Shown: positions 51,283 to 64,000 of the stretch, one piece after another | Position numbering within the stretch: the first letter of the stretch is position 1 | How the letters are laid out: every line of letters starts with the position of its first letter | Assembly (NCBI GenBank): GCA_963783385.1 | Contig: CAWANJ010000009.1 | Location: forward strand, 932,242-996,241 | Length of the DNA stretch: 64,000 nucleotides | Reading direction: 5' to 3' | Source of the DNA: an uncultured Gemmatimonadales bacterium | GTDB taxonomy: Bacteria > Gemmatimonadota > Gemmatimonadetes > Palauibacterales > Palauibacteraceae | The notes under the pieces: generated by a model | Told to the model about the DNA's origin: nothing | What the model saw: the letters and a program-made list of their open reading frames with translations, nothing else | The model's database searches: none | Made by a program: the position numbers and the translations under genes

Positions 51283-51322
51283 GGCTCGGCTCCCGATTCG
51301 GCAGGCATGTCAGGCTGTTTCA

Positions 51323-51381
51323 TGTTTCATGAATCGTGAAACACCACGACTCATAATAGCCGGCCGCCGACTGTCTGCCAA
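51323..51381 (-). promoter_or_regulatory. Sigma70 promoter plus operator for the type IV TA-like pair
   Basis: Minus strand TTGGCA(51381-76)-N17-TATTAT(51358-53); imperfect inverted repeat TGTTTCATGAATCGTGAAACA at 51323-51343. Confidence 0.8.
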
Positions 51382-51428
51382 GGGGCACCGGGATGAGCCG
51401 GAGGCGATGTCGGCCCCCGTCCTCGGGC

Positions 51429-52689
51429 CTACCCCCGGCTGAACACCGCCCCGTGCGGCACCGCGCTCCCCTTCCAGCCGTCGGGCCAGTCGCGCGTGAA
51501 GTCGATCTGGTCCGGCGAGAGCGTGAGCCGCCCGGTCTCCCGGTCGATGGTCGCGAAGCGGACGAAGGTGTTCAGCGCGCCGAACCCGGTGATGACGAGG
51601 CGGTCGCCGCCCGGCTCGGCCGCGATCCAGTGCGGGTACTCGTCCGGCTTCATCAGAATCCGGCTCACCTCGCGCGGGTGCTCGGGATCGCGCATGTCGA
51701 GGCTCACGACCGCGTGGCCCGATCTCCGCCGTCACGACCAGGTAGGGACCGACGACCACCGGCACCTCGCACACCCGGTAGCCCAGGTCGTAGACGTGCT
51801 CGAGGGTCGGCCGGTCGCCGCCGAGGTCCCGCATCAGGAAGAGGCCGCAGTTGAAGGTCGGCACGACCACCGTCCGGCCGTCCGCCAGCAGCCGCGGCTC
51901 CGACGCATCGATCGCATCGGCCGACGAAATGGCCTGCGTGCCCCCGGGCCTGGGCAGGGGGATCGTGGCGAGGAGCTTCAGGTCGGAGAGCCGCCACACC
52001 TGCACCACGTGGCTCGGCTGGGCTCCCATCATGTCGGAGCTGCTGGTCACCACGCGGTCCAGCTTCTCCGAGACCGCGAGGCTGTAGGGGCGGATGTCGG
52101 GATCCGCCGCGCTGTCCGCCGCGTCGCTCGTCCTCACCACGCGCCCCTGCCCGTCGAGCTCGACCAGGCCTCCCGGCGCCCGGTTGAAGCCGCCGGAGTA
52201 CTGGAACGTCGCGAGCGTATGGCCGTTCGAGAGGTACGCGAACGAGTGCGGGTACTGGTACTTCCCCTGGCTCCCGAACTCCCGCAGCAGGGCCGGGTGC
52301 GCCGCGTCGCGCAGGTCGAACACGTACGTGCGGTTCCCCAGCCAGTCGTTGGCGTAGAGCACGTCGTCCGGCGGCAGGGCGTAGTTGGTGTGATGCGCCA
52401 TCAGCGCGTCGCCCACGGGGAGCATGGCGACCAGCTTGCCGGACGGCCCCGCGTCGGGCCCGACGTCGAACACGGCGAGGAAGTCCTTGCCGCCCGCCAT
52501 GCCGCGGCGGTACGCGTCCATGTCGCCCGACATGAGCGCCGCCTCGGAGGCGTGGGGCGTCCGCGCCTCCATGGCCCAGACGAAGAGGTAACGGCTGTGC
52601 GGCGGGTCGGCGTGCGCGGCCGGCCGTGCGCAGGCGGCCAGCAGGATCGCGGTGGTGGCCAGCCAGCGTGTGCGGGGGAAACGGCTCAT
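51429..52689 (-). CDS. Lipoprotein, selenium-binding-protein/YncE-like beta-propeller (frameshift ~51725)
   Basis: Lipobox LLAAC; DFLAVFD, AHHT, YPHSF, GGLVELD, VQVWRLSDLKLL, EPR, PHGAVF. Confidence 0.75.
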
Positions 52690-53051
52690 GGTTTCCTCCT
52701 CGTGACGGGTCGTTCCGGTCCGGGGGTGCACGGGCATCGGGCCCAGCATACGCCGGTTGTCGCCGGTTGTCGATCCTGTGGCCCGCGATGCTGCGCACGC
52801 GCAGGTGCTCAGCGAGAGAGGTGCAAGCCCCAGGCGGGCGAGTCATCGATCAGCGCGCACTTCCGCGCCGCACGGGCGCGAGCGAGAACCCTCTGGAGCC
52901 GTCCAGAGCCCCAGCGTACGCCAGGACCGCGTTGGCTCCGACAGCCTTGAGGAGCGTCGGCTTCCCCCCGTCGACGTACCCTGTCGGCTCCCCGTGTGGG
53001 TCGACGTCCCGTCTGTGAGACACCCAGATGACATCTCCAGATGTGATCGTC

Positions 53052-53080
53052 TTGACACGCGGACGCCGCAATGCTAATGT
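53052..53080 (+). promoter_or_regulatory. Sigma70 promoter
   Basis: TTGACA-N17-TAATGT with TGn extension; GGAGG RBS at 53099. Confidence 0.8.
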
Positions 53081-53108
53081 GTGTGGAAACCAGCAGCCGG
53101 AGGTGGAA

Positions 53109-53663
53109 ATGGAACCGAGCTATTCCTTCGAGGAGTTCGTCTCGTTCTTGGACTATGCATCCGACATGGGCCTACTGAAGGCGAACACCGTGGTCGGCTG
53201 GAAGACAGCCGCGTCCAAGGTCGCAGACGACCTGCTTAAGCAGGAAGCTGAGGACGTGCGCCAGATCGACCTTGACCTGCTATTCCAGCGCTTTGTGAAT
53301 CGGAATCGAGTCCAGGTGAGCCCCAATACACTCCGCACCTACAAGCAGCGACTGGGGAAGGCACTGGCGGAGTTCGAACAGTGGAGGCAAAGCCCAACCA
53401 GCTACAAGCCATCGCTCGGATCGCGGAGTCGAACAGCAGACTCCGGGTCACCCAAGAAGGACGTGCCGCGCTCAGACAGTAATCTGACTGCGGCGACGGA
53501 GGGGCCGTCCCTGCAGCCCAAGGGCATGCTTACGCTGCCGTTCCCCTTACGCCCGGACTTCTTGGTGACGATCCAGGTGCCGCGTGACCTTACGTCCTCC
53601 GAAGCGGCGAGGATAGCCGCCTTCGTGAAGACCCTCGCGGTTGATGTCGAACCAGGCCCCTAG
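53109..53663 (+). CDS. Hypothetical protein; helical N-domain reminiscent of an integrase core-binding domain plus small C-terminal domain
   Basis: ATG at 53109 after RBS; SPNTLRTYKQRL; C-terminal LPFPLRP...VPRDLT..EAARIAAFVKTLA. Confidence 0.7.
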   Translation: MEPSYSFEEFVSFLDYASDMGLLKANTVVGWKTAASKVADDLLKQEAEDVRQIDLDLLFQRFVNRNRVQVSPNTLRTYKQRLGKALAEFEQWRQSPTSYKPSLGSRSRTADSGSPKKDVPRSDSNLTAATEGPSLQPKGMLTLPFPLRPDFLVTIQVPRDLTSSEAARIAAFVKTLAVDVEPGP

Positions 53664-53846
53664 CTTCAAGACGAAGCGCCCGGCACCAGCTGGCACTGGA
53701 ACCGGGCGCCGAATCTCCCACGGGCAACGCAGGGCCGCCCAACGGGAGGCCGGGACTGACGTCCCGAGGTGCGACTGACTGCTAGATAGGTGCCTCGCCG
53801 CGTCGCCGGTGGCAAGTGGCCTTGCCACGACCTATGGAGTAGTGCG

Positions 53847-54017
53847 ATGGCTTACCACGTGTACCGCGATCACCGCGGCCAGTGGCGCTGGCGGCTTACT
53901 GCCGGCAACCACCGCATCATCGCTGACTCCGGCGAGGGCTATTACAACAGGCAGGATTGCCTCGCCGCGATTCAGCTGGTGAAGCGGTCGGCGGCAACGC
54001 CCGTTCTGGGAGCGTAG
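53847..54017 (+). CDS. YegP/DUF1508 family protein
   Basis: YRDHRGQWRWRL.AGNHRIIADSGEGY.NRQDC..AI. Confidence 0.9.
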   Translation: MAYHVYRDHRGQWRWRLTAGNHRIIADSGEGYYNRQDCLAAIQLVKRSAATPVLGA

Positions 54018-54550
54018 CCGAATGGGAGGGGCCTCGACCATGTGAGGTCCCTCTTTCCTAGTGCGGCGTCGCTTCCCGCAATAGGCGACCTCTCCCCAAA
54101 AACCTACCCACCTCTCTAGGGCGCGCGGGCCGGGACCGACGCCTGCGCTGAGTTCTCCAACCGTCATCTTGGGTCGGCATCACAGAAGGCGATATGTGGC
54201 GCGCCCGAGTTTCTCCACAATGGCAGGTTCGGTTACCGCGCAATCGCGAGCACCCCGCTCAAGCCCACCTCCCCATACCGATGCAGCCACTTCTAGCCCA
54301 CTTGGCAGCCGATCCCGTACCGGGCGCGCAGCTCGGTCATCGACGTCCAGCCCTCTAGGGCTTCCAGAGCGAGAGCCGCTCGCTCTCCCATCTGACAAGT
54401 CTGACTCCACGGCATCCGCCACCTCGCACCAGAGGGTGGCCCGGGATTCGCGAATTGTCAGCCATCTGCTGAGTCCGCTGTGTTACCGGCCTGCCCGGGC
54501 CACACTCGCCGGAAGCATGAACCGTTACCAGGCTCCACACCCTACTCCTG

Positions 54551-55513
54551 TCACTCATCCAAACCAATCATCAGGCCCTCGGGTTGGTATCTCTCGCAGA
54601 AGATGTCAACGCCAAGTTTGATGAGAATTGCAGTTACTGGAATCGCGATAGCGTAGGTACCCATGCCGAGACCGGACAGTGCAGCGACCACGGCCGCTCC
54701 GACGATTCTCTTGTCCAATGCGACCATCAGGCCGTGCTCGAACCACATCTTGTAGGTATCGGAGGTCGGGTCACAGAGTGCTCTCCACACAGCCCTCTTA
54801 GCCGCGCCGAAGACGGTCCGTCCAACCTCCTTCTTCTTCCTTCGCGACTCGGGACTGGGGAGTAGCAGCCGCTCGGCCTTAGGCAACTGCTTCCTGGAAA
54901 ACTCATAGACCTCTAACAGTCGATCAACCACGGGCTTCGGCAGCGTCTGGCCGAGTTGCAGGTAGATCTCTTCCTCCGGCCGGGTTGCGACGAGCTTTCC
55001 TGCTTCGTCCTGTACAGTCGCCGGGTCGAGGCGTTCTTGCTCAAGCCCCTCTTCAGACATTACGGCGATTGCCCATTCAACATCAAATCGTTCGACCATC
55101 CGACGATAGAATTGACGTCGGCGGCTCGGCGACTTGATGCTCTTCACCTTGTCAAACGCTTCTGCCATCAGCGGCTTCGCTGATGAAAGGTCTCCACGTC
55201 TTAGGTAACACACGGCGAGAAGGGCTGTGGCTTCGAGATAGATCCTGGTTCGAGCAGACATCTTGGCTCGAACGCCGATGAAACCACGCTCGGCAAAGTT
55301 CAATTCTCCTGCCTCCAAGGCCGCCTCATACAGCCAAGCCTTCGCCTTCTGGAGGCGCGTTTCGTCTCCGGCGTTTCGAAGGATACCCTGAATGTCACCC
55401 GTGAGCTTCTTTGCGGTACTCAGATCCCCCATACGAGCCGCCGCCCGAAGCTTCCGCTCCAACGGACGCAGACGCCGCTTCTCAGAGTCTGTAAGGGGAC
55501 GCTTCTTTCCCAC
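54551..55513 (-). CDS. Hypothetical helical (TPR-like) protein with C-terminal hydrophobic segment; cassette gene
   Basis: Intact 320-aa ORF, lower GC, preceded by an attC-like site. Confidence 0.8.
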   Translation of the reverse strand: MGKKRPLTDSEKRRLRPLERKLRAAARMGDLSTAKKLTGDIQGILRNAGDETRLQKAKAWLYEAALEAGELNFAERGFIGVRAKMSARTRIYLEATALLAVCYLRRGDLSSAKPLMAEAFDKVKSIKSPSRRRQFYRRMVERFDVEWAIAVMSEEGLEQERLDPATVQDEAGKLVATRPEEEIYLQLGQTLPKPVVDRLLEVYEFSRKQLPKAERLLLPSPESRRKKKEVGRTVFGAAKRAVWRALCDPTSDTYKMWFEHGLMVALDKRIVGAAVVAALSGLGMGTYAIAIPVTAILIKLGVDIFCERYQPEGLMIGLDE

Positions 55514-55536
55514 TAGAGACTCCTATCCATGCCGGC

Positions 55537-55640
55537 TCATGACGTCGCCCCGTGGTCGCCGACGCCCGCGAGTCCCAGCGACCGGTCGTCCCAAAGGGCG
55601 AGCCGCCGCAAGCGGCGGAGCCTTAGCCGTCGTGCTAGAT
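55537..55640 (-). mobile_element. attC-like site (degenerate)
   Basis: Minus strand ATCTAGC...GTCATGA; internal GCCGAC..CGAGT.CCAGC..AAGGGCGAG shared with the 56529 and 57871 sites. Confidence 0.6.
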
Positions 55641-55672
55641 GACAACCACCAGGTCGTCATTTCGCCCTGTTC

Positions 55673-56314
55673 CTAGAACGCAGCGAGGAGCATTTCGACG
55701 CTGTTGCTCGCCCTAGCTTCAATCCCCGAAGCTGCAACGATGTCCCTGGCGCGCTCGCGGAGGTCTGGATCGCCAGTCAGCAGGAACGCACGCCGAAGGT
55801 AGTCGATGGCCAATAGTGGATTTCGCTCGACCTGATCCGCTACGAAGGCATAGTATGCGGCGCGTTCCTTTAGATCTTCAAGGAAGGCAACCAAGCGAGA
55901 TTCGAATCGATCATCATAGTCCACATACTCAGTGCGAACCAGGTCGCTCGGCACGGACGCCGTACGTTCCTTGACTAGGAGAGTCTCTTTACCATAGGCC
56001 TGCATCATGCCGAGTTCATAGAACACGTTTGAGAGAGTTTCCGCTGGCATTTGCGAATGGACGATCGCAATGCCAACAGGAACGCTGAGGAGAAGATCCC
56101 AGATCTTAATGAGGAAATCTCTTCCTGTAACAACGCTCTCAGCATCAATGACACCAAAGCCTTGGTCGCTGAGAACGTGGTCTAGGTCGCCCCGGATCCT
56201 CACAGCCATGTCCGGCAACGAATCTCCGAGCTGGCTCATCACAAAGCAGGTGCACGCCCGGTATTGAAGCGGCGTGGTGACCACGTCGCCGTCGGTGGGT
56301 CGGTAATATATCAC
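55673..56314 (-). CDS. Nucleoside 2-deoxyribosyltransferase/TIR-like domain protein
   Basis: TCFVMSQ, DFLIKIWDLL, SNVFYELGMMQAYGKETLLV, VPSDL. Confidence 0.75.
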   Translation of the reverse strand: MIYYRPTDGDVVTTPLQYRACTCFVMSQLGDSLPDMAVRIRGDLDHVLSDQGFGVIDAESVVTGRDFLIKIWDLLLSVPVGIAIVHSQMPAETLSNVFYELGMMQAYGKETLLVKERTASVPSDLVRTEYVDYDDRFESRLVAFLEDLKERAAYYAFVADQVERNPLLAIDYLRRAFLLTGDPDLRERARDIVAASGIEARASNSVEMLLAAF

Positions 56315-56469
56315 TTCTTCTTCGGCCGCTTCCGGGCGATTGGCACGCCCTTGTATGGCCCCGGCGACTTCTTGTGAGCTATAATCTTGCCTCTCGTGCG
56401 ATCGATCTTGACGTACCGTCCAGTGCGCGGATTCTTGACCTGAACGATATCGTGCTTCTTCTTAGCCAC
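56311..56469 (-). CDS. 52-aa highly basic protein (not in the ORF track)
   Basis: Hand translation: MAKKKHDIVQVKNPRTGRYVKIDRTRGKIIAHKKSPGPYKGVPIARKRPKKK; GTGA overlap with the next gene. Confidence 0.75.
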   Translation of the reverse strand: MAKKKHDIVQVKNPRTGRYVKIDRTRGKIIAHKKSPGPYKGVPIARKRPKKK

Positions 56470-56528
56470 CTGTCCCGGCCCCTTTGAGGGTCATGGGGTT
56501 CATTCTCTCCACATCAATATTGGCTGCC

Positions 56529-56628
56529 GAATAACTTCCCCGCCCGTTGCCGACGGTCGCGATTCTCAGCCAGCGGGCATGCCGAAGGGCGAGCTATCGG
56601 CCGCGAAGGATCAGCCGCCTCGTCAGGC
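56529..56628 (-). mobile_element. attC-like site
   Basis: Minus strand GCCTGAC (contains the stop of the upstream ORF)...GTTATTC; 100 bp. Confidence 0.7.
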
Positions 56629-57162
56629 GCCGCTCCCGCTGCGAATGCTCTCAAGTAGCTCCGCCGCAGTAAGCTCCCTTAAGTTCGTCCGGTCCACCAG
56701 CTCCCGAGCAAGTAAGCGAGTCCATTTTTGACTACTCACCCACCACCAATCGTGCATTTCGATCGAACTTCGAATATTGCCGTCTGCATCCCGGAGACGG
56801 ACTGAGGTCGTGTCCGACTCGAGAAGCCAGGCTGTAGGGTTCCGCACACCGCGCAGAACTAGTCGGAAGGTAACCGAACTGCAGATTCCATTGTGGACCG
56901 AAGTGGGCAGCAACAGTTCCAGTGTTTGCCGGGGGTACTGGGGAATGAGGTGAATCCAATCCCGAGGCTCCAAGACCCGCGTGTCGGCGGCCTCCTCGCC
57001 TCTCTGTGGATCGATAAAGACCCACTCACCCGGCTCATTGCGCTGAACCTCCCAGTTCCCGCGAAGCCAGCCAAGTGCATGCTCGGCGCCGGCACGAACA
57101 CCGATCCGATATGGTTCACCAGCTCCAGCTCGGCATAGGACCAATTCTGTGGGATAAGGCAT
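56623..57162 (-). CDS. Hypothetical protein; cassette gene
   Basis: 179-aa ORF fills the space between two attC-like sites; stop lies inside R''. Confidence 0.7.
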   Translation of the reverse strand: MPYPTELVLCRAGAGEPYRIGVRAGAEHALGWLRGNWEVQRNEPGEWVFIDPQRGEEAADTRVLEPRDWIHLIPQYPRQTLELLLPTSVHNGICSSVTFRLVLRGVRNPTAWLLESDTTSVRLRDADGNIRSSIEMHDWWWVSSQKWTRLLARELVDRTNLRELTAAELLESIRSGSGA

Positions 57163-57188
57163 CAGTTCGGGTCTCCAATTGGAGTGGC

Positions 57189-57271
57189 GCCTAAGGGCTC
57201 TAGGCTGGCGACCCGAGCGGCGAGCTCCCGAAGCGGCCGGAGGCCACGCAGGCGCCAGCCGCTTGTAATCC
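57189..57271 (-). mobile_element. attC-like site (degenerate cores)
   Basis: Minus strand GGATTAC-AAGC-GGCTGGCG...CGCCAGCC-TAGAGCC-CTTAGGC; 8-bp inverted inner boxes. Confidence 0.65.
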
Positions 57272-57285
57272 GGCGTGCGTCCGAG

Positions 57286-57817
57286 CTACCTGCCCCTGGG
57301 CAGACAGGCCACCAGTGCAATTCCCGCATAAGCGGCGTCGAAGAAACCGATGATCATCCAAGCGATTAGAGTACCGCTGACCCTTTGTTGGCACCATGAC
57401 AGGGTTGGATCGCCATCTCGACTGCCAGGGCAGCCGCTGACCCTCGCCGAAGGTCTTCCCGTCACTGAACAGTGAGAAGCCGATCAACGGCTCCAGTCTG
57501 CGCGCTTGAGCGATTCGAAAGCCAAAATATCTCGTGTAGAATTTGAACGCTACCAGCCATACAGGAGTCAGAAGGACTCCCAGTGCGCAACCTGCGATGA
57601 CAGTCCAGCGGCCGTGAGGTGTTTTCGCCAGTTCGATGAGATTACTTGCAATGAAACCGAGTAGCACTGTCTCGGCTACAAGGAATAACCCGAACACGGT
57701 CCAACGCATCTGCCCTTCGTAGTGGACCATGGCCAGAACATGCCCGTACTCGCTCTTTGCTCGCTCGAGTGTCCCGCCCTTGTGGACGGCGTCCTGTTCA
57801 GAACCAAGATCGCTCAT
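57286..57817 (-). CDS. Small multi-TM membrane protein; cassette gene (frameshift ~57380)
   Basis: TM segments WTVFGLFLVAETVLLGFI and VIAGCALGVLLTPVWLV, then ARRLE; third TM in a shifted frame ending TAG at 57286. Confidence 0.7.
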
Positions 57818-57870
57818 TGGCACACGCATTCGTATTGAGCTAGAAAAGACTCTTGCACGAGAAGCATTCG

Positions 57871-57973
57871 GCATAACGTCCCCGCCGGTTGCCGACACCC
57901 ACGAGTTCCAGCGCGCGGGCGCCCGGAAGGGCGAGTGTCCGATGGCGGTAGAGCGACACCCGCCGTGTTATCG
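57871..57973 (-). mobile_element. attC-like site
   Basis: Minus strand CGATAAC...GTTATGC; 103 bp; homologous to the 56529 and 55537 sites. Confidence 0.75.
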
Positions 57974-57996
57974 GAAGCTGCTAGTAGCATCACGAT

Positions 57997-58885
57997 TCAG
58001 GTTAGCAGCGACTTCAGTATGTCGTAGACCAATGCAAGAAGTAGCGTTGAGAGGGCGCCCGTAACAACCGAACGAACGCCAGCGCTTCGTGAACCCTTCA
58101 ACTCTACCAATGGAAAGGCCCATCGAAAGCCGTGTGCGACGCCTCGGAAGAACAAGAAGGCAACGAGGAACAGGTAAAATGTAGAGCGCACCTTCGAGTG
58201 CCGGATGCCACCGCTCGAGGACACCCTGAATCCCCTGGGAGATCCGGAATACGATCCAAAGAGAGCCAGGAATCGCCACAAACCACTGGTACGCGTTGTA
58301 CCAGCTATGCTTGTGCAGCCATCCTCGCCGTCTTCCTCGTCGTTCGAGGAATCCCATAACGGTCTCATGGACCCCAGCCACCCACGTGGAGTCCGGACCT
58401 ATGATCTCAAAGCTGCTGTTATTGGGCGTTGGATTGGAAGCGGGATCGTACTTGTCAAACCCGGGGGGCTCGGTGAAATCGAGGTTCAAGCGAAACCGAT
58501 TCTCCGGCTCGAACTTGTGCAGAGTCCGGATACTCGCGGCGCTGTCGTACAGTATGGAGGTGACTGTGTCGGGTAGTCTCTGAGATCGGAAGTCTGGCGC
58601 CGAACTCACAACCATTCGTTCTCCGTCTGCACCGTAGATGAATGCACTAAGGTGCCCGGATTCTCGCCCTCTTTTCTTCAGTTCTTCGAACTCCGCTTCC
58701 GACGTGTCGGCAGGCCTCTGTGCGCGTGCGAGCGAGTGCTCAATGCCCTCCTGGGTCTTTCGCTCCAGGTCTTCGTAGAGGGTAACCAAGTCATCACGGG
58801 ATAGAAGACACGACGGGATTGGCGTCGATCTGTACACTCCCTGGTAGGCGAGAGCCTTCGGAGGGCTGTTGCTCTCGGTAGCCAC
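57997..58885 (-). CDS. Hypothetical protein with soluble N-domain and about 3 C-terminal TM helices; cassette gene (frameshift ~58180)
   Basis: ORF 57968..58885 plus C-terminus in ORF 57997..58368 (YLFLVAFLFFR...LLLALVYDILK). Confidence 0.75.
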
Positions 58886-58937
58886 CGTATACCTCCGCCG
58901 CTGTCACCCTACGATGTAGTTGGCCTCTGCGTAGCTT

Positions 58938-59032
58938 CCATAACGACGTGGTGTTGCCGGCGCGGCCCGCACCAGGGGCCGTGATTCAGCAAAGTGAGCG
59001 ACGCGAACGGTGCCGGCAACACTCAGTTGTGC
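58938..59032 (-). mobile_element. attC-like site
   Basis: Minus strand GCACAAC-TGA-GTGTTGCCGGC...GCCGGCAACAC-CACGTC-GTTATGG; perfect 11-bp inner inverted repeat; upstream gene stop abuts R''. Confidence 0.8.
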
Positions 59033-59419
59033 GCAAACTCCGCCGCACACTCCGACGTATCGCACCAGTCCACGAACCCGTCTCGTATCCAGAAGTGACT
59101 CTTGCAACCCACGCGTTGCCATATTGACGGCTCAATAGTGGGCCACTTGCATTCCCCAACGAGCTCCCAATGAGGAGCATGGCTGTCTCGTAACGATAGG
59201 TTCACGGCCCGACCACATCCCACAGGGGCAGCGAAACACGGCCCAGGCCGGCGACTCTGGGGTGCCGATGACCAGGAATTCCCGTTCGCGCGGATACTTC
59301 CCCCGTGGCGCCTGAGTTTGGAAATGAGTTTTGAGGAAATGGCGCCGAGGCTGGCTGATTCGTCTAACGCAGTACCTCAACCATCGCACGAAGTTCTCCA
59401 TGGCCGTCCAGAAGGTCAC
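59023..59419 (-). CDS. DUF6527-like Cys/His metal-binding protein (frameshift ~59220)
   Basis: FRCPCG|CG...PTIEPSIW...GCKSHFWIRDG.V.WC. Confidence 0.85.
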
Positions 59420-60846
59420 GACTGACGCAGCGCAGGCCGTCCGAGTAGGCCGTCCTCCTCCCGCATCGCGGTGAACCGTCCCTGCGTACAGTAGGGACAG
59501 TCTGGCGATGAGGACACTGCCCGCGATTCAATCTCCATCGTCACGAAGTTCAGCAGTATCTGCGTGCGGAGAAGGTGAGGCGGTAGCTTCCGATAGGGTC
59601 GTACAAGGTCAAAGATTGAAGCAACGGCGAAGTTCGCCACGGCACCGGTGAAGGGCCCAACGCCCGGCGCTTGCTCGTGACCCCCAACCAGATATCCCTC
59701 CGCCTCCTCTTGACGAGCCCGATCTGGATCCGCGCGGAATCGCAGCTCTCGCTTGATCCGGTCCGCGGTGATCACGCGCTGGCAAAACAGGCACGCGCCG
59801 AAAGACGGGGTAATGAAGCTCATCCGGGCGTGTTGATCGTGTAGTGTTGCGTCCCCACCATCAAGACTAACGGTGCCGCCAAGGCCGAGGTCGATAAGCG
59901 GCTGCCCATAAACGTATAGTGCCTTATTGAGCACCTCACGTCCGGTGTAGTCGTCGGTACATCCAAGCACTAGATCCGCCGTGGACAGTGCGGCAACGGC
60001 TGAGGCGGAGTCAGAAATTGAACCTACGAGGTAGGCCGCTGTACAGTTGAGCCCGAGGCCATTGACGTATCGCGCCAAGACCTTGGCTTTCATTCGACCG
60101 ACGTCAGCCTTACCGGCCCCGCGGACGCGGTTGAGGTTTGACTCTTCAAGCCTATCGTGGTCGATCAAGATGAGCTCGCCAACACCTGCTCTGGCCAAGA
60201 GCGTTGCGCTGGGGCTCCCTGTTCCACCGCATCCGACAATTGCGACGCGTAGAGAAGATAACTGAGCCGAAAAGGGCGTACCGAATGCGGCAGCTTGGCG
60301 AGCCTGTTGCTCACTCGGGTGCTGCGTCTCGGCCGCAAGGTGAACCTTCAAGAAGTCGCCCAAAACCGTGACATGCCGAACCGATTCCGCGATACCAACT
60401 CGGGCGCCCCCAAGCACCCTGCCCTTCCAGGAACGACCGTTCCAAAGTAGTGACACAATCTCAGCGTCCTCGCCATTTCTATTGACTAGCGCCTGGAGCA
60501 GCGTCGTTTCGTTTTCATCATCAACCGACGAGAACCGGTCTAGGCCGCCGGGATGATTGTGGACGAAACCAAAGACGAGATCCTCTTCTTCGCATCGTCG
60601 GAAAGCCGGGCGTAGTGGCGCTGTCTGGTAGCGGATCTCCGTGGGTGTCGCCCGAATTATCCAGTCCCGTTCGAACGGGAACGCATCGACGCTCAAATAG
60701 CGGTCAGAGAGCGGAAGGGGTGCAGCCTCTCGACTGATCTTCCGGAACAGTATGACCGCGGCCGCCTCATTACCGTCCGCCGCCGCGAACGCTCGTTGGC
60801 AAGTGTCGTCGTGAAGGTCGACAAGCGTGACCCGTGGAGAACTCAT
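59416..60846 (-). CDS. JAB/MPN peptidase fused to ThiF/E1-like adenylating enzyme
   Basis: FVHNHP....FSSVDD (JAB); VGCGGTGS, DHDRLEESNLNR, GCTD, CLFC and CPYC. Confidence 0.92.
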   Translation of the reverse strand: MSSPRVTLVDLHDDTCQRAFAAADGNEAAAVILFRKISREAAPLPLSDRYLSVDAFPFERDWIIRATPTEIRYQTAPLRPAFRRCEEEDLVFGFVHNHPGGLDRFSSVDDENETTLLQALVNRNGEDAEIVSLLWNGRSWKGRVLGGARVGIAESVRHVTVLGDFLKVHLAAETQHPSEQQARQAAAFGTPFSAQLSSLRVAIVGCGGTGSPSATLLARAGVGELILIDHDRLEESNLNRVRGAGKADVGRMKAKVLARYVNGLGLNCTAAYLVGSISDSASAVAALSTADLVLGCTDDYTGREVLNKALYVYGQPLIDLGLGGTVSLDGGDATLHDQHARMSFITPSFGACLFCQRVITADRIKRELRFRADPDRARQEEAEGYLVGGHEQAPGVGPFTGAVANFAVASIFDLVRPYRKLPPHLLRTQILLNFVTMEIESRAVSSSPDCPYCTQGRFTAMREEDGLLGRPALRQS

Positions 60847-61253
60847 CCCCTATCAGCCTTGGGGTTCTGAAGGGCCCAGTCTACCCTGTGAAGAATGGTG
60901 TTCACGTCGTCCCTTCCAGGGCGCCAGCGGGAGGTCGGGGTATTCCAGTGGCGAGACCAGCGGCAAAACTCCACTCCCTTGAAGCTCCTGTTGTTTCCCG
61001 ACCCGAGTGGAGAGGCAGCCGGAATCGGTCCCCCGTCCGAGAGTTCAAGGCACGGGGCGACCCAGAGCATGTCGATTCCATCGTCTGGGTAGTTTTGGGG
61101 GATCACCACGAGAACGCGACACCGCTCGACCGTGTACAGGCCTGCGGGGAGCAAACAGTCCAGCAGAACTAGATAGCGGGAGCCCTCGTCCTCCTCGTAC
61201 GAACGCCCGAGTTCGTCTAGTCGCTCGTATTCGTAGCCTCGGAGGAGGCTCAC
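60843..61253 (-). CDS. Prokaryotic E2-like protein (family E type)
   Basis: LLPAGLY, IPQNYPD..IDMLW, CRWSRHW...WRPGRD. Confidence 0.88.
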   Translation of the reverse strand: MSLLRGYEYERLDELGRSYEEDEGSRYLVLLDCLLPAGLYTVERCRVLVVIPQNYPDDGIDMLWVAPCLELSDGGPIPAASPLGSGNNRSFKGVEFCRWSRHWNTPTSRWRPGRDDVNTILHRVDWALQNPKADRG

Positions 61254-61483
61254 TCTCCAGCACCTGACTCCGGGTTCTGTGTAGAGAACCGGTCGATGCC
61301 TGGCGTTGCAGATAGGTCCACCGTGCTCCCGGGCGTTATCTCCTCGTCCGGCTGCCCCGGCACCTTTCGGAATATCAAGACACCGTCCGGAATGTTGGCT
61401 AGCTCCTTGAGTTGTTCGTAGCTGATGGAATCAGCGTCCCACTCGTAGGGATCGTTGTCGACCGAAAGTTCTTTCCTTGGCAT
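61250..61483 (-). CDS. Ubiquitin-like (multiubiquitin-domain) protein, 77 aa
   Basis: RBS AAGGAA; VDNDPYEW...ISYEQLKELA...VDL...GIDRFST; C-terminus SGAG-E. Confidence 0.85.
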   Translation of the reverse strand: MPRKELSVDNDPYEWDADSISYEQLKELANIPDGVLIFRKVPGQPDEEITPGSTVDLSATPGIDRFSTQNPESGAGE

Positions 61484-61594
61484 GATTCCCTTCCTTGCGG
61501 AGTGTGAAAGAGTAAGGCTAATCCGTGACGACATCATACGCTGCCCACTCCCCGCCGGCGCGAGCATCCAATTGGCGGTGCCGACACTGTACAC

Positions 61595-61703
61595 GCCACA
61601 CAGTTGGCGGAAGTTCAGCATGACTCGTCAGTCCACGACGACCGTCACTTGCCGTTGTGGCTTCGGTAACACCCGGGACTGAATCTGTTCGGCTGTGTTA
61701 GCA
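61595..61703 (-). mobile_element. Possible att-like boundary of the cassette array
   Basis: Minus strand TGCTAAC...GTTACCG (61703-61664) followed by imperfect hairpin GCCACAAC...GTGTGGC (61661-61595); coincides with the GC shift. Confidence 0.4.
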
Positions 61704-63866
61704 GAACCTAGTGTCCCCCCTCCCCAACCACTTCTCGAACCACCCCAGAATGTGCGGCGACACGTCCATCAGCAGCTTCGGCTCCCGCGGCCCGTGCGGC
61801 GTCCGCGGGAACTGCACCATCTGCGTCGGCACGCCCATGTGCTTCAGCGCCCCGTAGAACTCGTAGCCCTGCGTCGTGGGCACCCGGACGTCCCTCGCGC
61901 CGAGCATGATCTGCACGGGGGTCTTCACGTTGGCGATGTGGTAGTAGGCCGAGTGGGCCTGGTAGAGCTTGTAGTTCTTCCACAGCGGGACCTCGCCCAT
62001 GCCGGCCAGGAGGTAGGCGGGGATGTCGGTCGTGTAGACCATGCTCACCAGGTCGGGGAGGCCGGCGCCCATGCTCACGGCCTTGAAGCGGTGGGTCTGG
62101 GTGACGATCCAGCTCGTCATGTAGCCGCCGTAGCTCCACCCCATCTCGACCATCGAGTCGGGGTCGGCCACGCCCATCTGGATCACGTGGTCCACGCCGG
62201 CCATGAGGTCCTGGTAGTCGCCGCCGCCCCAGTCGTGGACGTTGGCGTAGCGGAAGGTCTTGCCGTAGCCGGTGCTCCCGCGCGGGTTGGCGCGCAGGAT
62301 CGCGTAGCCGTGCTGGGCGAAGTACTGGAGCATGTAGATGGACGGGCCCCCGGTGAAGCTCTGCGTGAACACGCCCGCCGGGCCGCCGTGCACGTTGAGG
62401 ATGAAGGGCACCTTCTCGCCCTTCTTGTAGCCCACCGGGTAGGTGAGGAGACCCTCGATCGTGAACTTCCCGTCCTTCGACTTCCACGACAGGAGCTCGG
62501 TCTTCCCCATGGGGGGCTTCGGCACGTCCGCGTTCACCGAGGAGAGCTTCGACGCCCCGCTCATGGCGAGGGAGGCGGTCGAAGAGACGTACACGTCGGC
62601 CGGGGTGTCGGGGTCCTGCCAGGTGAAGGCGGCCCGGTCGCCGGCCCGGTCCAGGGCGAAGCCGCCCAGCGTCCCCTCCTTCGGGGTCATGACGCGCGGC
62701 GCGCTCCCGTCGGCCGGGAGGGCGATGAGGGCGCCCTGCGTGTGCACGGGCTCTGGCGCCCAGATCGTCTTCCCGTCCCCCGACCAGCCCAGGATCGAGG
62801 CGGTGCGGTTCGGCGTGTCGGCCAGCTTGTGGGGCGTGCCCCCCGAGGCCGGCACCACGTACACGTCCGCCAGGCTCACCGGCTCGGGCTTCGAGCCCGT
62901 CGAGCTGAACGCGATCGTCTTCCCGTCGGGCGAGTAGTGCGGGTCGGGGTCGACGCCCTTCCCCGTCACCAGCCCCTTCACCGCGCCCGAGTCGGAGGGG
63001 ACGGTCGAGATGTCCCCGTGCAGGAAGCCCGTGTTGATGCGCGGGTCGGGCTGGTGGGAGAAGGCGATCGTCGACCCGTCCGGTGACCAGTCGAAGCCGG
63101 TCACCGTGAAGTCGCCCGAGGTGAGCCGCTTCACCGCGTGCGAGCCGCTCGAGTCGGCCGCGAGCGCGACCGTGTACAGGTGCGCGTCGTGGAACACGCT
63201 GTCGATCACCGTCTCGTCGCGCTTTTCCTTCTCCGCCTTCTTCCGGGCGCTCGAGACCGTGTCCGCCGAGGTGTAGGCGATGCGGTCCCCCTGCGGCGAC
63301 CACTCGAACCCGTCCACGCCGGAGGGGGCGTCGGTGAGCTGCCACGCCTCGCCTCCGTCCACCGGCATCACCCACACCTGGCTCTTCCCGTCGCCCTCCT
63401 CGTTCTCGTTCGCCACCGTCGCGGCGCGCGAAGAGAGGAAGGCCAGCTCCTTCCCGTCCGGGGAGAAGGCGGGCGAGGAGGCGCCCTTGGGATCGTGCGT
63501 GTACTGCCGGTTCCACGAGCCGTCCGCCGCCGCCACCCACACCTGGCTCACGTAGCGCGACTCCTTGCCCTTCATGTTCGCCGACCGGACCACGTAGGCG
63601 ACGAGCTTCCCGTCGGGGGACATCGCGGTCCCGCCGATCTGCCGGTACAGCATGCTGAGGGACGGCGTCCAGCCCGAGTCGGCGGCGACCTGGGCGGGGG
63701 TCATGGCCTCGGGGGTGGTGTCGGGACCTGGGGCCGGAGGCGCGGGCGGCCGGCGGCGCCGTGGTCGGCGTGGCGTGCGCGGCCGGGGACGTGGCGAGGA
63801 GCGCGAGCGAGGAGAGGGCCGCCATGAGGGGAGGCGACCGGAGCGGCGAACGAAGCGCGGGATCAT
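61698..63866 (-). CDS. S9 family peptidase (dipeptidyl aminopeptidase/acylaminoacyl peptidase); frameshift near N-terminus
   Basis: PD40 propeller, VHGGP, NPRGSTGYG, GWSYGG, D.RVP, PHG. Confidence 0.95.
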   Translation of the reverse strand: MIPRFVRRSGRLPSWRPSPRSRSSPRPRPRTPRRPRRRRPPAPPAPGPDTTPEAMTPAQVAADSGWTPSLSMLYRQIGGTAMSPDGKLVAYVVRSANMKGKESRYVSQVWVAAADGSWNRQYTHDPKGASSPAFSPDGKELAFLSSRAATVANENEEGDGKSQVWVMPVDGGEAWQLTDAPSGVDGFEWSPQGDRIAYTSADTVSSARKKAEKEKRDETVIDSVFHDAHLYTVALAADSSGSHAVKRLTSGDFTVTGFDWSPDGSTIAFSHQPDPRINTGFLHGDISTVPSDSGAVKGLVTGKGVDPDPHYSPDGKTIAFSSTGSKPEPVSLADVYVVPASGGTPHKLADTPNRTASILGWSGDGKTIWAPEPVHTQGALIALPADGSAPRVMTPKEGTLGGFALDRAGDRAAFTWQDPDTPADVYVSSTASLAMSGASKLSSVNADVPKPPMGKTELLSWKSKDGKFTIEGLLTYPVGYKKGEKVPFILNVHGGPAGVFTQSFTGGPSIYMLQYFAQHGYAILRANPRGSTGYGKTFRYANVHDWGGGDYQDLMAGVDHVIQMGVADPDSMVEMGWSYGGYMTSWIVTQTHRFKAVSMGAGLPDLVSMVYTTDIPAYLLAGMGEVPLWKNYKLYQAHSAYYHIANVKTPVQIMLGARDVRVPTTQGYEFYGALKHMGVPTQMVQFPRTPHGPREPKLLMDVSPHILGWFEKWLGRGDTRFC

Positions 63867-64000
63867 CGGGCCTCCAGGGTCCAGGAAGCCCGAATGCTAA
63901 CGCGCCCGCGTGGATGGCGTAAAGTCTCGGAGCCGGCGGTTCCCGGCTTCCCGGCTTCCGCCTACGGCGTGTCGCTCGCCGCCTTCCCGCCGTCGAGCCG

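Follow-up and report, generated by a model that had tools for sequence, protein, structure and literature searches.

In this study, we describe a minus-strand operon of four coupled genes from an uncultured Gemmatimonadales bacterium (GenBank assembly GCA_963783385.1, contig CAWANJ010000009.1), located in a stretch of 64,000 nucleotides that was analysed as a whole (the window). We consider it probable, at roughly three chances in four, that these genes constitute a Bub-family ("6E") conjugation system residing in one integron-type cassette of ~2.6 kb within an integrase-less cluster. The Bub family itself is already known; the operon is a variant of it found in a new setting. Its genes follow each other in the order bubA, bubB, bubCD and bubE (Table 1).

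From the conserved residues, we infer an ATP-dependent pathway in which conjugation would proceed via oxyesters. Judged by homology to the Citrobacter proteins (bioRxiv 10.1101/2024.11.21.623953), BubCD would use its JAB domain to cut Glu77 off the ubiquitin-like protein (Ubl) BubA and leave Gly76 free, and its E1 domain would adenylate this glycine. BubA would be moved onto the crossover-loop Tyr385 as an oxyester, handed to Ser100 of BubB with the help of His102 and Asp61, and finally passed to target lysines. BubE, putatively a Ser/His protease that has a zinc site of four cysteines, may take the tag off again. The cassette would end in an attC-type site starting within the last bubE codons, and the sites of the cluster share one family with those of a chromosomal integron-like array located elsewhere in this genome.

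Table 1. Features of the bub operon and of the surrounding island (positions within the window).
Feature	Position	Strand	Description
bubA	61250-61483	minus	77-aa single beta-grasp ubiquitin-like protein; Pfam Multi_ubiq E 9.5e-12
bubB	60843-61253	minus	136-aa standalone E2; Pfam Prok-E2_E E 5.1e-31
bubCD	59416-60846	minus	476-aa JAB/JAMM peptidase-E1 adenylation fusion; Pfam ThiF E 3e-36, Prok-JAB 25.6 bits (cut-off 25)
bubE	59023-59419	minus	DUF6527 serine-protease gene in two frames, 59132-59419 and 59023-59223
Single extra base in bubE	59218-59221	minus	Inside TGC CCC TGT GGG A TGT GGT (three-frame reading)
attC-type site A	58938-59032	minus	R'' GCACAAC, TGA, L'' GTGTTGCCGGC, central hairpin, L' GCCGGCAACAC, R' GTTATGG
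attC site B	57865-57979	minus	62.8 bits, E 6.9e-15 (C1-only covariance model); R'' overlaps the stop of gene 57968-58885
attC site C	56523-56634	minus	36.1 bits, E 1.5e-7 (covariance model)
attC site D	55531-55646	minus	63.1 bits, E 5.9e-15 (covariance model)
Site E, possible decayed attC	61565-61660	minus	Between S9-peptidase stop and bubA; R''-like CCACAAC, L'-like GTCGGCACC
Low-GC island	52900-61700		57-61% GC versus about 70-72% in the flanks; holds the cassette cluster

Operon Organization and the bubE Frameshift

An earlier, sequence-only reading of this DNA had proposed a complete operon of four minus-strand genes with overlapping stop and start codons, and the open reading frames, together with Pfam matches for all four genes, bear out this arrangement. 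A 4-nt stop/start overlap is found at every junction (GTGA between bubA and bubB, ATGA between bubB and bubCD, and GTGA at 59416-59419 between bubCD and bubE), the start codon of bubB being a GTG that overlaps the bubA stop. A scan of the minus strand revealed neither a promoter upstream of bubA nor a terminator after bubE, with totals at the shuffle expectation. Of the checks that the same reading had suggested, HMM searches with Prok-E2_E, ThiF, Prok-JAB and DUF6527 matched the operon with all four families, whereas PADLOC (2023 release), whose library is older than Bub, returned only generic E1-E2 domain matches for BubCD and left the other Bub proteins without a match. Six neighbouring cassette proteins had no match in the 2023 PADLOC release either.

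As sequenced, however, the operon is not complete, because a single surplus nucleotide divides the DUF6527 gene between two frames. The DUF6527-like protein predicted as the fourth gene is recognizable by its family match (E 1.5e-17, in the C-terminal frame only and ending at 59023) but does not form one ORF: 67 N-terminal codons run from 59419 to about 59221 in one frame, 64 C-terminal codons continue to 59023 in another, and the extra base falls inside the CPCG-CG zinc motif. Both halves are colinear with the single ORFs of 43 relatives and, when an X is set at the break, align with them over the full length; CxCxC and Sx6CxxH are retained, so that no zinc cysteine and no part of the Ser-x6-Cys-x2-His motif is missing. 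A programmed +1 frameshift was also considered and rejected, since the site has no stop or slippery context, the zero frame stays open for 28 more codons, and a shift is unnecessary in all 43 relatives whose bubE is one ORF.

Possibly, the frameshift is real and the cassette is a decaying relic that has lost its de-conjugating protease, leaving a system that is inactive or runs without its brake. We favour this explanation less than an intact system, but it has to be taken seriously: among the 44 relatives with a BubE match, 43 have one long ORF and a single one is degraded, the island also contains transposase-like remnants and ORFs that seem to change frame (as read by eye), and the upstream site E looks decayed. 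Nevertheless, bubA, bubB and bubCD are intact with all their key residues conserved, and the catalytic and zinc residues of BubE downstream of the break are intact as well. Moreover, the essential rpoC gene of the same assembly shows a similar one-base defect (C1:241381/2, on contig C1); the assembly therefore has indel errors, and the bubE break may be an artefact. The frameshift may thus be genuine or a product of the assembly. Public short contigs of 155-269 nt, from three DNA runs of one study, show no differences at 58900-59095, 59273-59433, 60879-61042 and 61397-61667, and none of them spans ~59218; no RNA run is listed as holding the locus. Genes 51310-52749 and 57968-58885, in which frame changes were suspected, gave no Pfam match on either part.

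The attC-Type Site and Its Genomic Context

On contig C1, a 17-site attC-like array adjoins an IntI/XerA-like recombinase. Conservation of the array sites begins at R'' (ATAAC) and ends at R' (GTTA), with unrelated flanks, and an 805-nt cassette is duplicated at two array positions with 97.4% identity, the identity ceasing at R' GTTA; within the array, the site family (rather than site A itself) recombines between the G and the TT of R'. An IntI-like recombinase was found solely on C1 in this genome, the best recombinase of which scores 223.7 bits against an integron-integrase cut-off of 265 (TIGR02249). The C1 enzyme has no IntI-specific insertion, profile positions 177-233 being covered by ~14 residues, and it points the same way as the cassettes. 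The cassettes of this main array include conflict-type ones encoding TIR, MazG and 5-hmdU DNA kinase domains. Arrays of the same attC family are present in two of three other genomes of the genus, and Bub genes were not found in these genomes.

The attC-like site that had been proposed to abut the last stop codon of the operon could be confirmed as an inverted repeat running from the last bubE codons to 58938. R'' consists of these last codons and is followed by the stop TGA; the site has the same orientation as the ORF and forms an imperfect palindrome, R''-L''...L'-R', in which R' begins with GTT (58942-58944). The box pattern, which was chosen after site A had been seen, yields 11 matches in the genome, namely ten array sites and site A, and none in a simulated genome, and the 3'-half motif CGGCAAC-N6-11-GTTA has 16 genome matches, 15 of them in the two clusters (array and island), versus one in the simulated genome. 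Within the array, C1:750921-750998 is 75% identical to site A, and this sibling (C1:750901-751005) reaches 41 bits with a covariance model built solely from 12 attC sites on C1. The same model does not lift site A itself above background (11.4 bits, E 0.93, rank 16 of 62); its hairpin score in a crude in-house scorer is 12.5, compared with a control 95th percentile of 8.0.

This background score would also fit a chance palindrome, a terminator or some other intergenic repeat after bubE, the operon having arrived otherwise within a generic genomic island. We regard such an origin as unlikely, even though the genome has no canonical IntI, an upstream attC is unproven, and the proposed survey of sites next to homologous operons gave no enrichment, with hairpins above the control 95th percentile (crude in-house scorer) after only 3 of 44 operons elsewhere. 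A terminator is opposed by the loop of ~50 nt, the missing T-run and the terminator scan, which is blank there; a chance repeat is opposed by the boxes and their spacing, which fit the array family, by the clustering of the 3'-half motif, by the sibling inside the array, and by three clear sites of the family in the next three intergenic gaps, all in the same orientation.

These three sites (B, C and D) are in coding orientation. CALINs are clusters of at least two attC sites without an integrase nearby. With three significant sites, site A and no integrase-family match, the island is a CALIN-like cluster; no tRNA was found in the window. Decay of the kind considered above for bubE can befall cassettes parked in an integrase-less cluster. 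We also considered whether the island is a missing continuation of the C1 array and rejected this, since genes of host GC content flank it on both sides.

No internal site would fit into the operon, which is therefore naturally read as one cassette of four genes. The proposal that the operon was mobilised as one cassette accordingly gains from its downstream side, whereas on the upstream side there is only a decayed look-alike. No significant attC was detected upstream of bubA, and site E has no covariance-model match: it can be aligned to site A and to the sibling on C1, its R' GTT and stem complementarity are lost, and it amounts to one loose L-pair match, of a pattern with 173 matches elsewhere in the genome. 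Site E as the upstream cassette edge is unproven. The related suggestion that ~2.6 kb is unusually large for a cassette did not hold, as the sites of the array are spaced at 0.75-7.4 kb.

Conserved Residues of the Predicted Conjugation Proteins

Relatives were collected with a profile of 28 proteins, which gave 48 loci; with BubCD alone as the query, none of 48 pattern matches was genuine. Both bubA and bubB are present at 42 of these loci, in no case fused, and bubE is one ORF at 43. The count of 19/401 genomes takes in the unpublished genome G057, of which the other claims are independent. Unfused Ubl and E2 genes are the norm in this clade, and in our operon, too, bubA and bubB are separate ORFs in different frames. 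A recoded BubA-BubB fusion was rejected, since the two genes are in different frames in 34 of the 42 relatives and separated by a single in-frame stop in only eight.

BubA ends in ...ESGAG76-E77, with a single residue beyond the conjugating glycine, as the sequence-only reading had noted. Gly76 aligns with the ...AG ends of the relatives, which finish in ...S(Q/E)AG followed by 0 (15 proteins), 1 (7), 2 (13), 6 (1) or 9 (2) residues; hence, 15 of 38 stop exactly at that glycine. In BubA, the JAB domain would thus have one residue to trim.

The E2 carries the expected RWSRH within the motif FCRWSRH, its key residues being Asp61, Cys97, Ser100 and His102. In a match with Citrobacter BubB (PDB 9eae_C, E 8e-7), D61...RWS100RH102 is aligned to D299...RWS333RH335. 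The Cys three residues before the Ser, which had been pointed out for this E2, is indeed present but is not peculiar to it: 38 of 43 clade relatives have CRWSRH, while in the wider family the position is Gln in 114 of 132 motif-bearing representatives. Cys97 might be the nucleophile in this clade, instead of or in relay with Ser100, which would make the pathway thioester-based or mixed. Apart from its conservation in the clade, such a role could be suggested by the presence of Cys at ranks 1-7, 9, 10, 14 and 17 of the 150 best E2 representatives, and by the position of Cys97 three residues before the residue at the canonical E2 cysteine position, as that position is given in the available part of the Bub preprint (bioRxiv 10.1101/2024.11.21.623953). 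However, the same proteins retain Ser and His, Gln prevails at this position in the wider family, and the E1 has an invariant Tyr and no loop Cys; therefore, we find catalysis through Cys97 improbable and retain the oxyester route through Ser100.

The predicted fusion of JAB and E1 was found as Prok-JAB and ThiF matches in one 476-aa ORF. The key residues of BubCD (Glu27, His96/His98, Ser106, Asp109, Arg240, Tyr385 and the zinc cysteines 352/355/450/453) are invariant or at least 90% conserved among 28 aligned clade members, with Tyr385 and the JAMM residues invariant in 28/28. Cysteines occur only at positions 16, 85, 206, 268, 296, 352, 355, 450 and 453, and the crossover loop reads EGY(385)LVG; the GY and the absence of Cys between the two CxxC pairs (355 to 450) agree with the sequence-only reading. 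The closest PDB match is Citrobacter BubCD (9ea4, E 1.2e-33, phmmer, residues 10-433), in which E27, H96, H98, S106 and D109 align to E28, H91, H93 and D104, NLNR is aligned as well, and EGY385LVG aligns to GY370. The assignment to a Bub-type pathway is supported by Citrobacter BubCD and BubB as the best PDB matches and by conservation of the residues of the oxyester pathway. A ThiF/MoeB-type sulfur-carrier or biosynthetic system without protein conjugation, suggested by NCBIfam matches of the E1 domain that are ThiF/MoeB-type and only sub-threshold, is hardly credible beside an E2 (Prok-E2_E), a JAB peptidase and a DUF6527 protease, with Bub proteins as the best PDB matches and no rhodanese domain or sulfur-transfer partner.

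Discussion

The closest described counterpart is Type I Bub (formerly 6E.1) of Citrobacter sp. RHBSTW-00271, which, in the available part of the preprint by Ye, Gong, Chambers and Corbett (bioRxiv 10.1101/2024.11.21.623953), comprises BubAB, BubCD and BubE (PDB 9ea4, 9eae) and is defined by the Ubl-E2 fusion BubAB. Our system shares with it the gene order, the fusion of JAB to E1, in which the JAMM and adenylation residues are the same, the crossover-loop Gly-Tyr without Cys, the Asp...Ser-x-His of the E2, a Ubl that would conjugate via its C-terminal Gly, and, within the split DUF6527 gene, the motif residues for a Cys4 zinc site and Ser/His dyad. It differs in that Ubl and E2 are separate ORFs, translationally coupled by the GTGA overlap, and in that the 77-aa Ubl contains a single beta-grasp domain instead of three, with only one residue to trim. 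Additionally, the E2 motif is FCRWSRH rather than AYQRWSRH (Cys for Gln), the E1 has two CxxC pairs, and overall similarity is distant. The carrier is also different: an integron-type cassette in place of the tRNA-inserted element described in the accessible text of the preprint (bioRxiv 10.1101/2024.11.21.623953).

Type II Bub (6E.2), exemplified in the same portion of that source by E. coli ZDHYS365 with BubA, BubBD and BubE, likewise has a separate Ubl gene, the DUF6527 protease and the Tyr/Ser oxyester logic, but its E2 is fused to the E1, with Ser, Lys and His in the E2 site, and JAB is usually absent, whereas our operon encodes a free-standing E2 and carries JAB on the E1 (bioRxiv 10.1101/2024.11.21.623953). 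Bil systems (bacterial ISG15-like, BilABCD) resemble ours in their separate Ubl and E2 genes, the JAB peptidase and the involvement in phage conflict that is suspected for them, so far as the available preprint text goes (bioRxiv 10.1101/2024.11.21.623953), but use cysteine thioesters, an E1 with a mobile Cys domain and a JAB encoded by its own gene, and have no DUF6527 protein.

Integron cassettes encoding phage defence are termed BRiCs in the part of the mobile-integron preprint available (bioRxiv 10.1101/2024.07.02.601719). Like BRiCs and CALINs, our cluster consists of cargo followed by an R''-L''...L'-R' site, with units in one orientation in a low-GC accessory region, and the main array has conflict-type neighbours; it differs in its four-gene ~2.6 kb cassette and in a recombinase that is below the IntI cut-off, without the IntI insertion and in the same direction as the cassettes. 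The word "integron" has no occurrence in the Bub preprint (bioRxiv 10.1101/2024.11.21.623953), and "ubiquitin" has none in the mobile-integron preprint (bioRxiv 10.1101/2024.07.02.601719). A defence role of the operon is suggested by association; in the available part of the Bub preprint, no Bub operon shielded E. coli against phage (bioRxiv 10.1101/2024.11.21.623953).

A bolder picture can be drawn, in which the operon stands for a large and so far undescribed clade with unfused Ubl and E2, a Ubl ending in Ala-Gly and the motif Cys-Arg-Trp-Ser-Arg-His, Cys97 serves as a second nucleophile or redox switch, and the pathway is traded as an integron cassette via a non-canonical IntI-like recombinase. 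Taken as a whole, we hold it to be unlikely; if it were true, Cys97 beside Ser100 would give a mixed thioester/oxyester relay.

No ubiquitin-like conjugation systems other than Bub are known to work on oxyester intermediates throughout. Separate Ubl and E2 genes and a conserved Cys beside the catalytic Ser set a widespread clade apart from Type I as published, and this Cys offers a direct mutational test of how strictly oxyester-only chemistry holds. An integron-type cassette would be a new carrier for a whole Bub pathway, and the TIR and MazG/5-hmdU-kinase cassettes in the parent array modestly strengthen a conflict or stress reading. The 2.6-kb cassette would provide a naturally delimited module for transplant experiments. 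Finally, a lineage-specific attC family together with an IntI/XerA-like recombinase without the IntI insertion may be of interest to integron biology itself.

The operon and its catalytic residues

The operon is a genuine member of the Bub family. ORF reading gives four translationally coupled minus-strand genes within window positions 59023-61483 (table), encoding a ubiquitin-like protein (Ubl; bubA), an E2 (bubB), a JAB-E1 fusion (bubCD; the Pfam cut-off for Prok-JAB is 25) and a DUF6527 serine protease (bubE), and the whole genome holds a single DUF6527 match and a single Prok-E2_E match. Among solved structures, those of Citrobacter come closest, BubCD at E 1.2e-33 (9ea4) and BubB at E 8e-7 (9eae_C); the Bub-type assignment of the sequence-only reading is therefore correct. 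Functional residues mapped from the Results of a Bub preprint (bioRxiv 10.1101/2024.11.21.623953) are all present: BubCD keeps its JAMM site (Glu27, His96-x-His98, Ser106, Asp109), Arg240 for adenylation and the crossover-loop Gly-Tyr385, BubB has Asp61 and Ser100-x-His102, and BubE carries the CxCxC and Ser-x6-Cys-x2-His motifs. Across 28 aligned clade members, neither Tyr385 nor any of the JAMM residues varies. Moreover, there is no Cys between the CxxC pairs of BubCD (352/355 and 450/453), so that the earlier observations at the residue level were right.

The closest BubCD proteins anywhere are two metagenome/MAG proteins with 58% identity, followed by a cloud at 47-50%. Within the host phylum, 19 of 401 sampled genomes (a count that takes in the unpublished genome G057) have a match at E <= 1e-20, the best with 34% identity. 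A search of the other three genomes in the genus (completeness 92, 70 and 95%) and of a further genome, G403, did not recover BubCD; all of these genomes gave generic ThiF-domain matches only.

Coordinates of the operon, of other features of the window and of related regions on contigs C1 and C5 of the same assembly (window positions unless a contig is named)
Feature	Position	Strand	Description
bubA	61250-61483	-	77 aa; Multi_ubiq E 9.5e-12 (Pfam)
bubB	60843-61253	-	136 aa; GTG start, GTGA overlap with bubA stop; Prok-E2_E 5.1e-31 (Pfam)
bubCD	59416-60846	-	476 aa; ATGA overlap; Prok-JAB 25.6 bits and ThiF 3e-36 (Pfam)
bubE	start 59419, end 59023	-	GTGA overlap; DUF6527 1.5e-17 (Pfam)
Site A	58938-59032	-	attC-type site after bubE
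Decayed attC look-alike	61565-61660		upstream of bubA
DUF1508 gene	53847-54020	+	small, YegP-like; Pfam E 1.9e-16
Transposase-like frame	54180-54540	-	helix-turn-helix, interrupted by stops, as read by eye
213-aa cassette protein	55673-56314	-	CAP12/Pycsar TIR-type effector domain, sub-threshold (E 0.04, 14.4 bits vs cut-off 24.7)
8xMP ORF	57200-57898	-	octameric membrane-protein domain, Pfam E 2.6e-8; C-terminal third resembles out-of-frame sequence
Weak attC-like site	57183-57277		after the 8xMP ORF; 14.5 bits, E 0.13
Island gene	57968-58885 with 57997-58368	-	seemingly continues in second frame near 3' end; no Pfam match
Host-GC gene	51310-52749 with 51429-51707	-	seemingly continues in second frame near 3' end; no Pfam match
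S9-peptidase region	61717-64000; C5:1-2295		two copies, 92.6% DNA identity
rpoC defect region	C1:241340-241430		locus L084
Integron-like array	C1:738657-781153	one orientation	loci L007-L009; 17 model-detected attC-type sites to contig end; GC 57-67%

An unfused, Cys-bearing clade

In the available text of both Bub preprints (including bioRxiv 10.1101/2024.11.21.623953), fusion of the Ubl to the E2 defines Type I Bub, whereas at this locus the two are separate genes. A profile search recovered 48 related loci, mostly from Proteobacteria and Bacteroidota and with 39-52% BubCD identity; bubA and bubB are both present in 42 of them and fused in none (0/42), hence the departure from the Type I fusion is not a local accident. 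The two genes lie in different frames in 34 of the 42 loci and are separated by a single in-frame stop in the other eight (L034, L037, L044, L045, L046, L048, L070 and L072); these same-frame pairs seem to stand midway between the fused and the unfused arrangement. BubA of the relatives ends in ...S(Q/E)AG followed by 0 (15 loci), 1 (7), 2 (13), 6 (1) or 9 (2) residues, and thus the one-residue trimming proposed earlier is plausible but not universal.

The Cys preceding the Ser of the E2, also pointed out in the sequence-only reading, proves to be a trait of the clade, as the CRWSRH motif occurs in 38 of 43 relatives, whereas the wider family mostly has Gln at this position (114 of the 132 motif-carrying proteins among the best 150 E2 representatives). 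Among these 150, obtained by a search over all lengths, the Cys-type motif appears at ranks 1-7, 9, 10, 14 and 17; 85 proteins have at most 160 aa, seven have 161-199 aa and 58 have at least 200 aa. Our collective results place the operon in an undescribed but widespread Bub clade, unfused and Cys-bearing.

The island and the integron-like array

A low-GC island (~52.9-61.7 kb, 57-61% GC vs about 70-72%) has the operon at its right end and carries a repeat in its intergenic gaps. The same repeat was found 12 times on contig C1, with 91% identity and in one orientation, between 742.7 kb and the end of the contig. Its conservation starts at the R'' box (cATAAC) and ends at R' (GTTAt), with unrelated flanks, and the folded consensus shows a bulged L''/L' stem that has unpaired bases and branches at its top. 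A covariance model built solely from the 12 C1 sites recovered three island sites (63.1, 62.8 and 36.1 bits) and found 20 sites in its own genome, 17 of them on C1. Elsewhere it detected arrays in two of the three other congeneric genomes, a single site in a different genus of the same family and zero sites in 12 sister-family genomes. Moreover, two positions of the C1 array carry copies of the same 805-nt cassette, whose 97.4% identity ends at the GTTA of R', which shows recombination at this box.

The C1 array is adjoined by a 387-aa IntI/XerA-like tyrosine recombinase (C1:738657-739820) pointing in the same direction as the cassettes. Its best family is 'integron integrase' (223.7 bits vs a cut-off of 265), it scores 208.6 vs 220 for XerA_Arch, and it is without the IntI-specific insertion; its relatives are named generic recombinase or 'recombinase/integron integrase', the nearest named ones coming from Gemmatimonadota MAGs. 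With genes of host GC on both sides and no integrase of its own, the island represents a CALIN-like cluster, i.e., an attC cluster without integrase.

The island has further contents (table). The DUF1508 gene is separate from the operon, ~5 kb away and on the opposite strand, unlike the Ubls fused to DUF1508 domains that the available text of the companion Bub preprint describes. The 8xMP ORF belongs to a neighbouring cassette, and the interrupted transposase-like frame is possibly what is left of an IS at the distal cluster end. Contig C5 opens with its copy of the S9-peptidase region at the very point where, in the window, the island starts; this copy may represent a paralogue or a strain variant, or else a fork of the assembly graph at a variable junction.

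Boundaries of the probable cassette

The attC-like site abutting the bubE stop (site A), for which the final bubE codons supply the R'' box, is at background by the covariance model (11.4 bits, E 0.93, rank 16 of 62). We nevertheless accept it as attC-type on three grounds. The box pattern AAC..TGCCG..CGGCAAC..GTTA, although chosen post hoc, matches 11 times in 3.54 Mb, namely at ten array sites and at site A, with none in a simulated genome; the 3'-half motif matches 16 times (15 within the two clusters), vs one in the simulated genome. Site A is 75% identical to C1:750921-750998, inside the array, where C1:750901-751005, scored at 41 bits by the model, represents a shorter site subtype that shares the boxes and, almost unchanged, the central hairpin. 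Finally, a crude hairpin scorer assigns site A 12.5, compared with a control mean of 4.1 and a 95th percentile of 8.0 (n = 220). By the same crude scorer, the suggested survey of attC sites beside homologous operons elsewhere revealed no enrichment, with 3 of 44 above the control 95th percentile.

The upstream boundary did not hold up equally well, as the sole candidate between the S9-peptidase stop (61698-61700) and bubA is a decayed look-alike. If this is the remnant of a site, the cassette would run from 61565 to 58944 (the G of R') and measure ~2.62 kb, which is not 'unusually large', as had been claimed, but within the 0.75-7.4 kb spacing between model hits in the C1 array. Because the genes overlap, an internal attC site would not fit between them. 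The operon is probably a single attC-bounded cassette of several genes, within a cluster that lacks an integrase.

The bubE frame break

The operon cannot be called complete as assembled, because bubE is broken by one extra base at about 59218-59221: codons 1-67 end in CPCG, and the remainder (CGRAV...) lies one base out of frame. Both halves are inside one ORF in 43 relatives, one relative is degraded and four loci have no match; when the break is bridged with X, the product aligns to the relatives along its entire length. None of the contigs found in public runs spans this position. A comparable defect affects the essential rpoC, which is split over two frames by a single extra base at C1:241381/2, between ...CEARRG and CRRCYG..., while rpoB is intact. 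Indel errors are thus present in the assembly and have to be considered for each apparent frameshift of the window, and we give roughly even odds, or slightly better, to the bubE break being an assembly artefact. The apparent frame changes in one island gene and one host-GC gene (table) suggest further one-base indels.

Possible role

A scan found no promoter-like or terminator-like site between the co-oriented S9-peptidase gene and bubA, and thus read-through expression is conceivable. The authors of the Bub preprint report no phage protection by Bub operons in E. coli (bioRxiv 10.1101/2024.11.21.623953), and our literature search returned no paper linking integrons with Bub or ubiquitin-like systems. 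Taken as a whole, the core of the sequence-only reading stands, without its completeness, its exceptional size and its upstream boundary.

Ten of the larger ORFs of the C1 array were scanned for cargo: one has MazG and MazG_C, the adjacent one a 5-hmdU DNA kinase domain, three others a TIR domain, DUF3800 and an IS1595 transposase, respectively, and five gave no match. The MazG, 5-hmdU DNA kinase and TIR domains therefore lend the cargo a conflict flavour, and the idea that integron cassettes can encode defence functions is already established (bioRxiv 10.1101/2024.07.02.601719).
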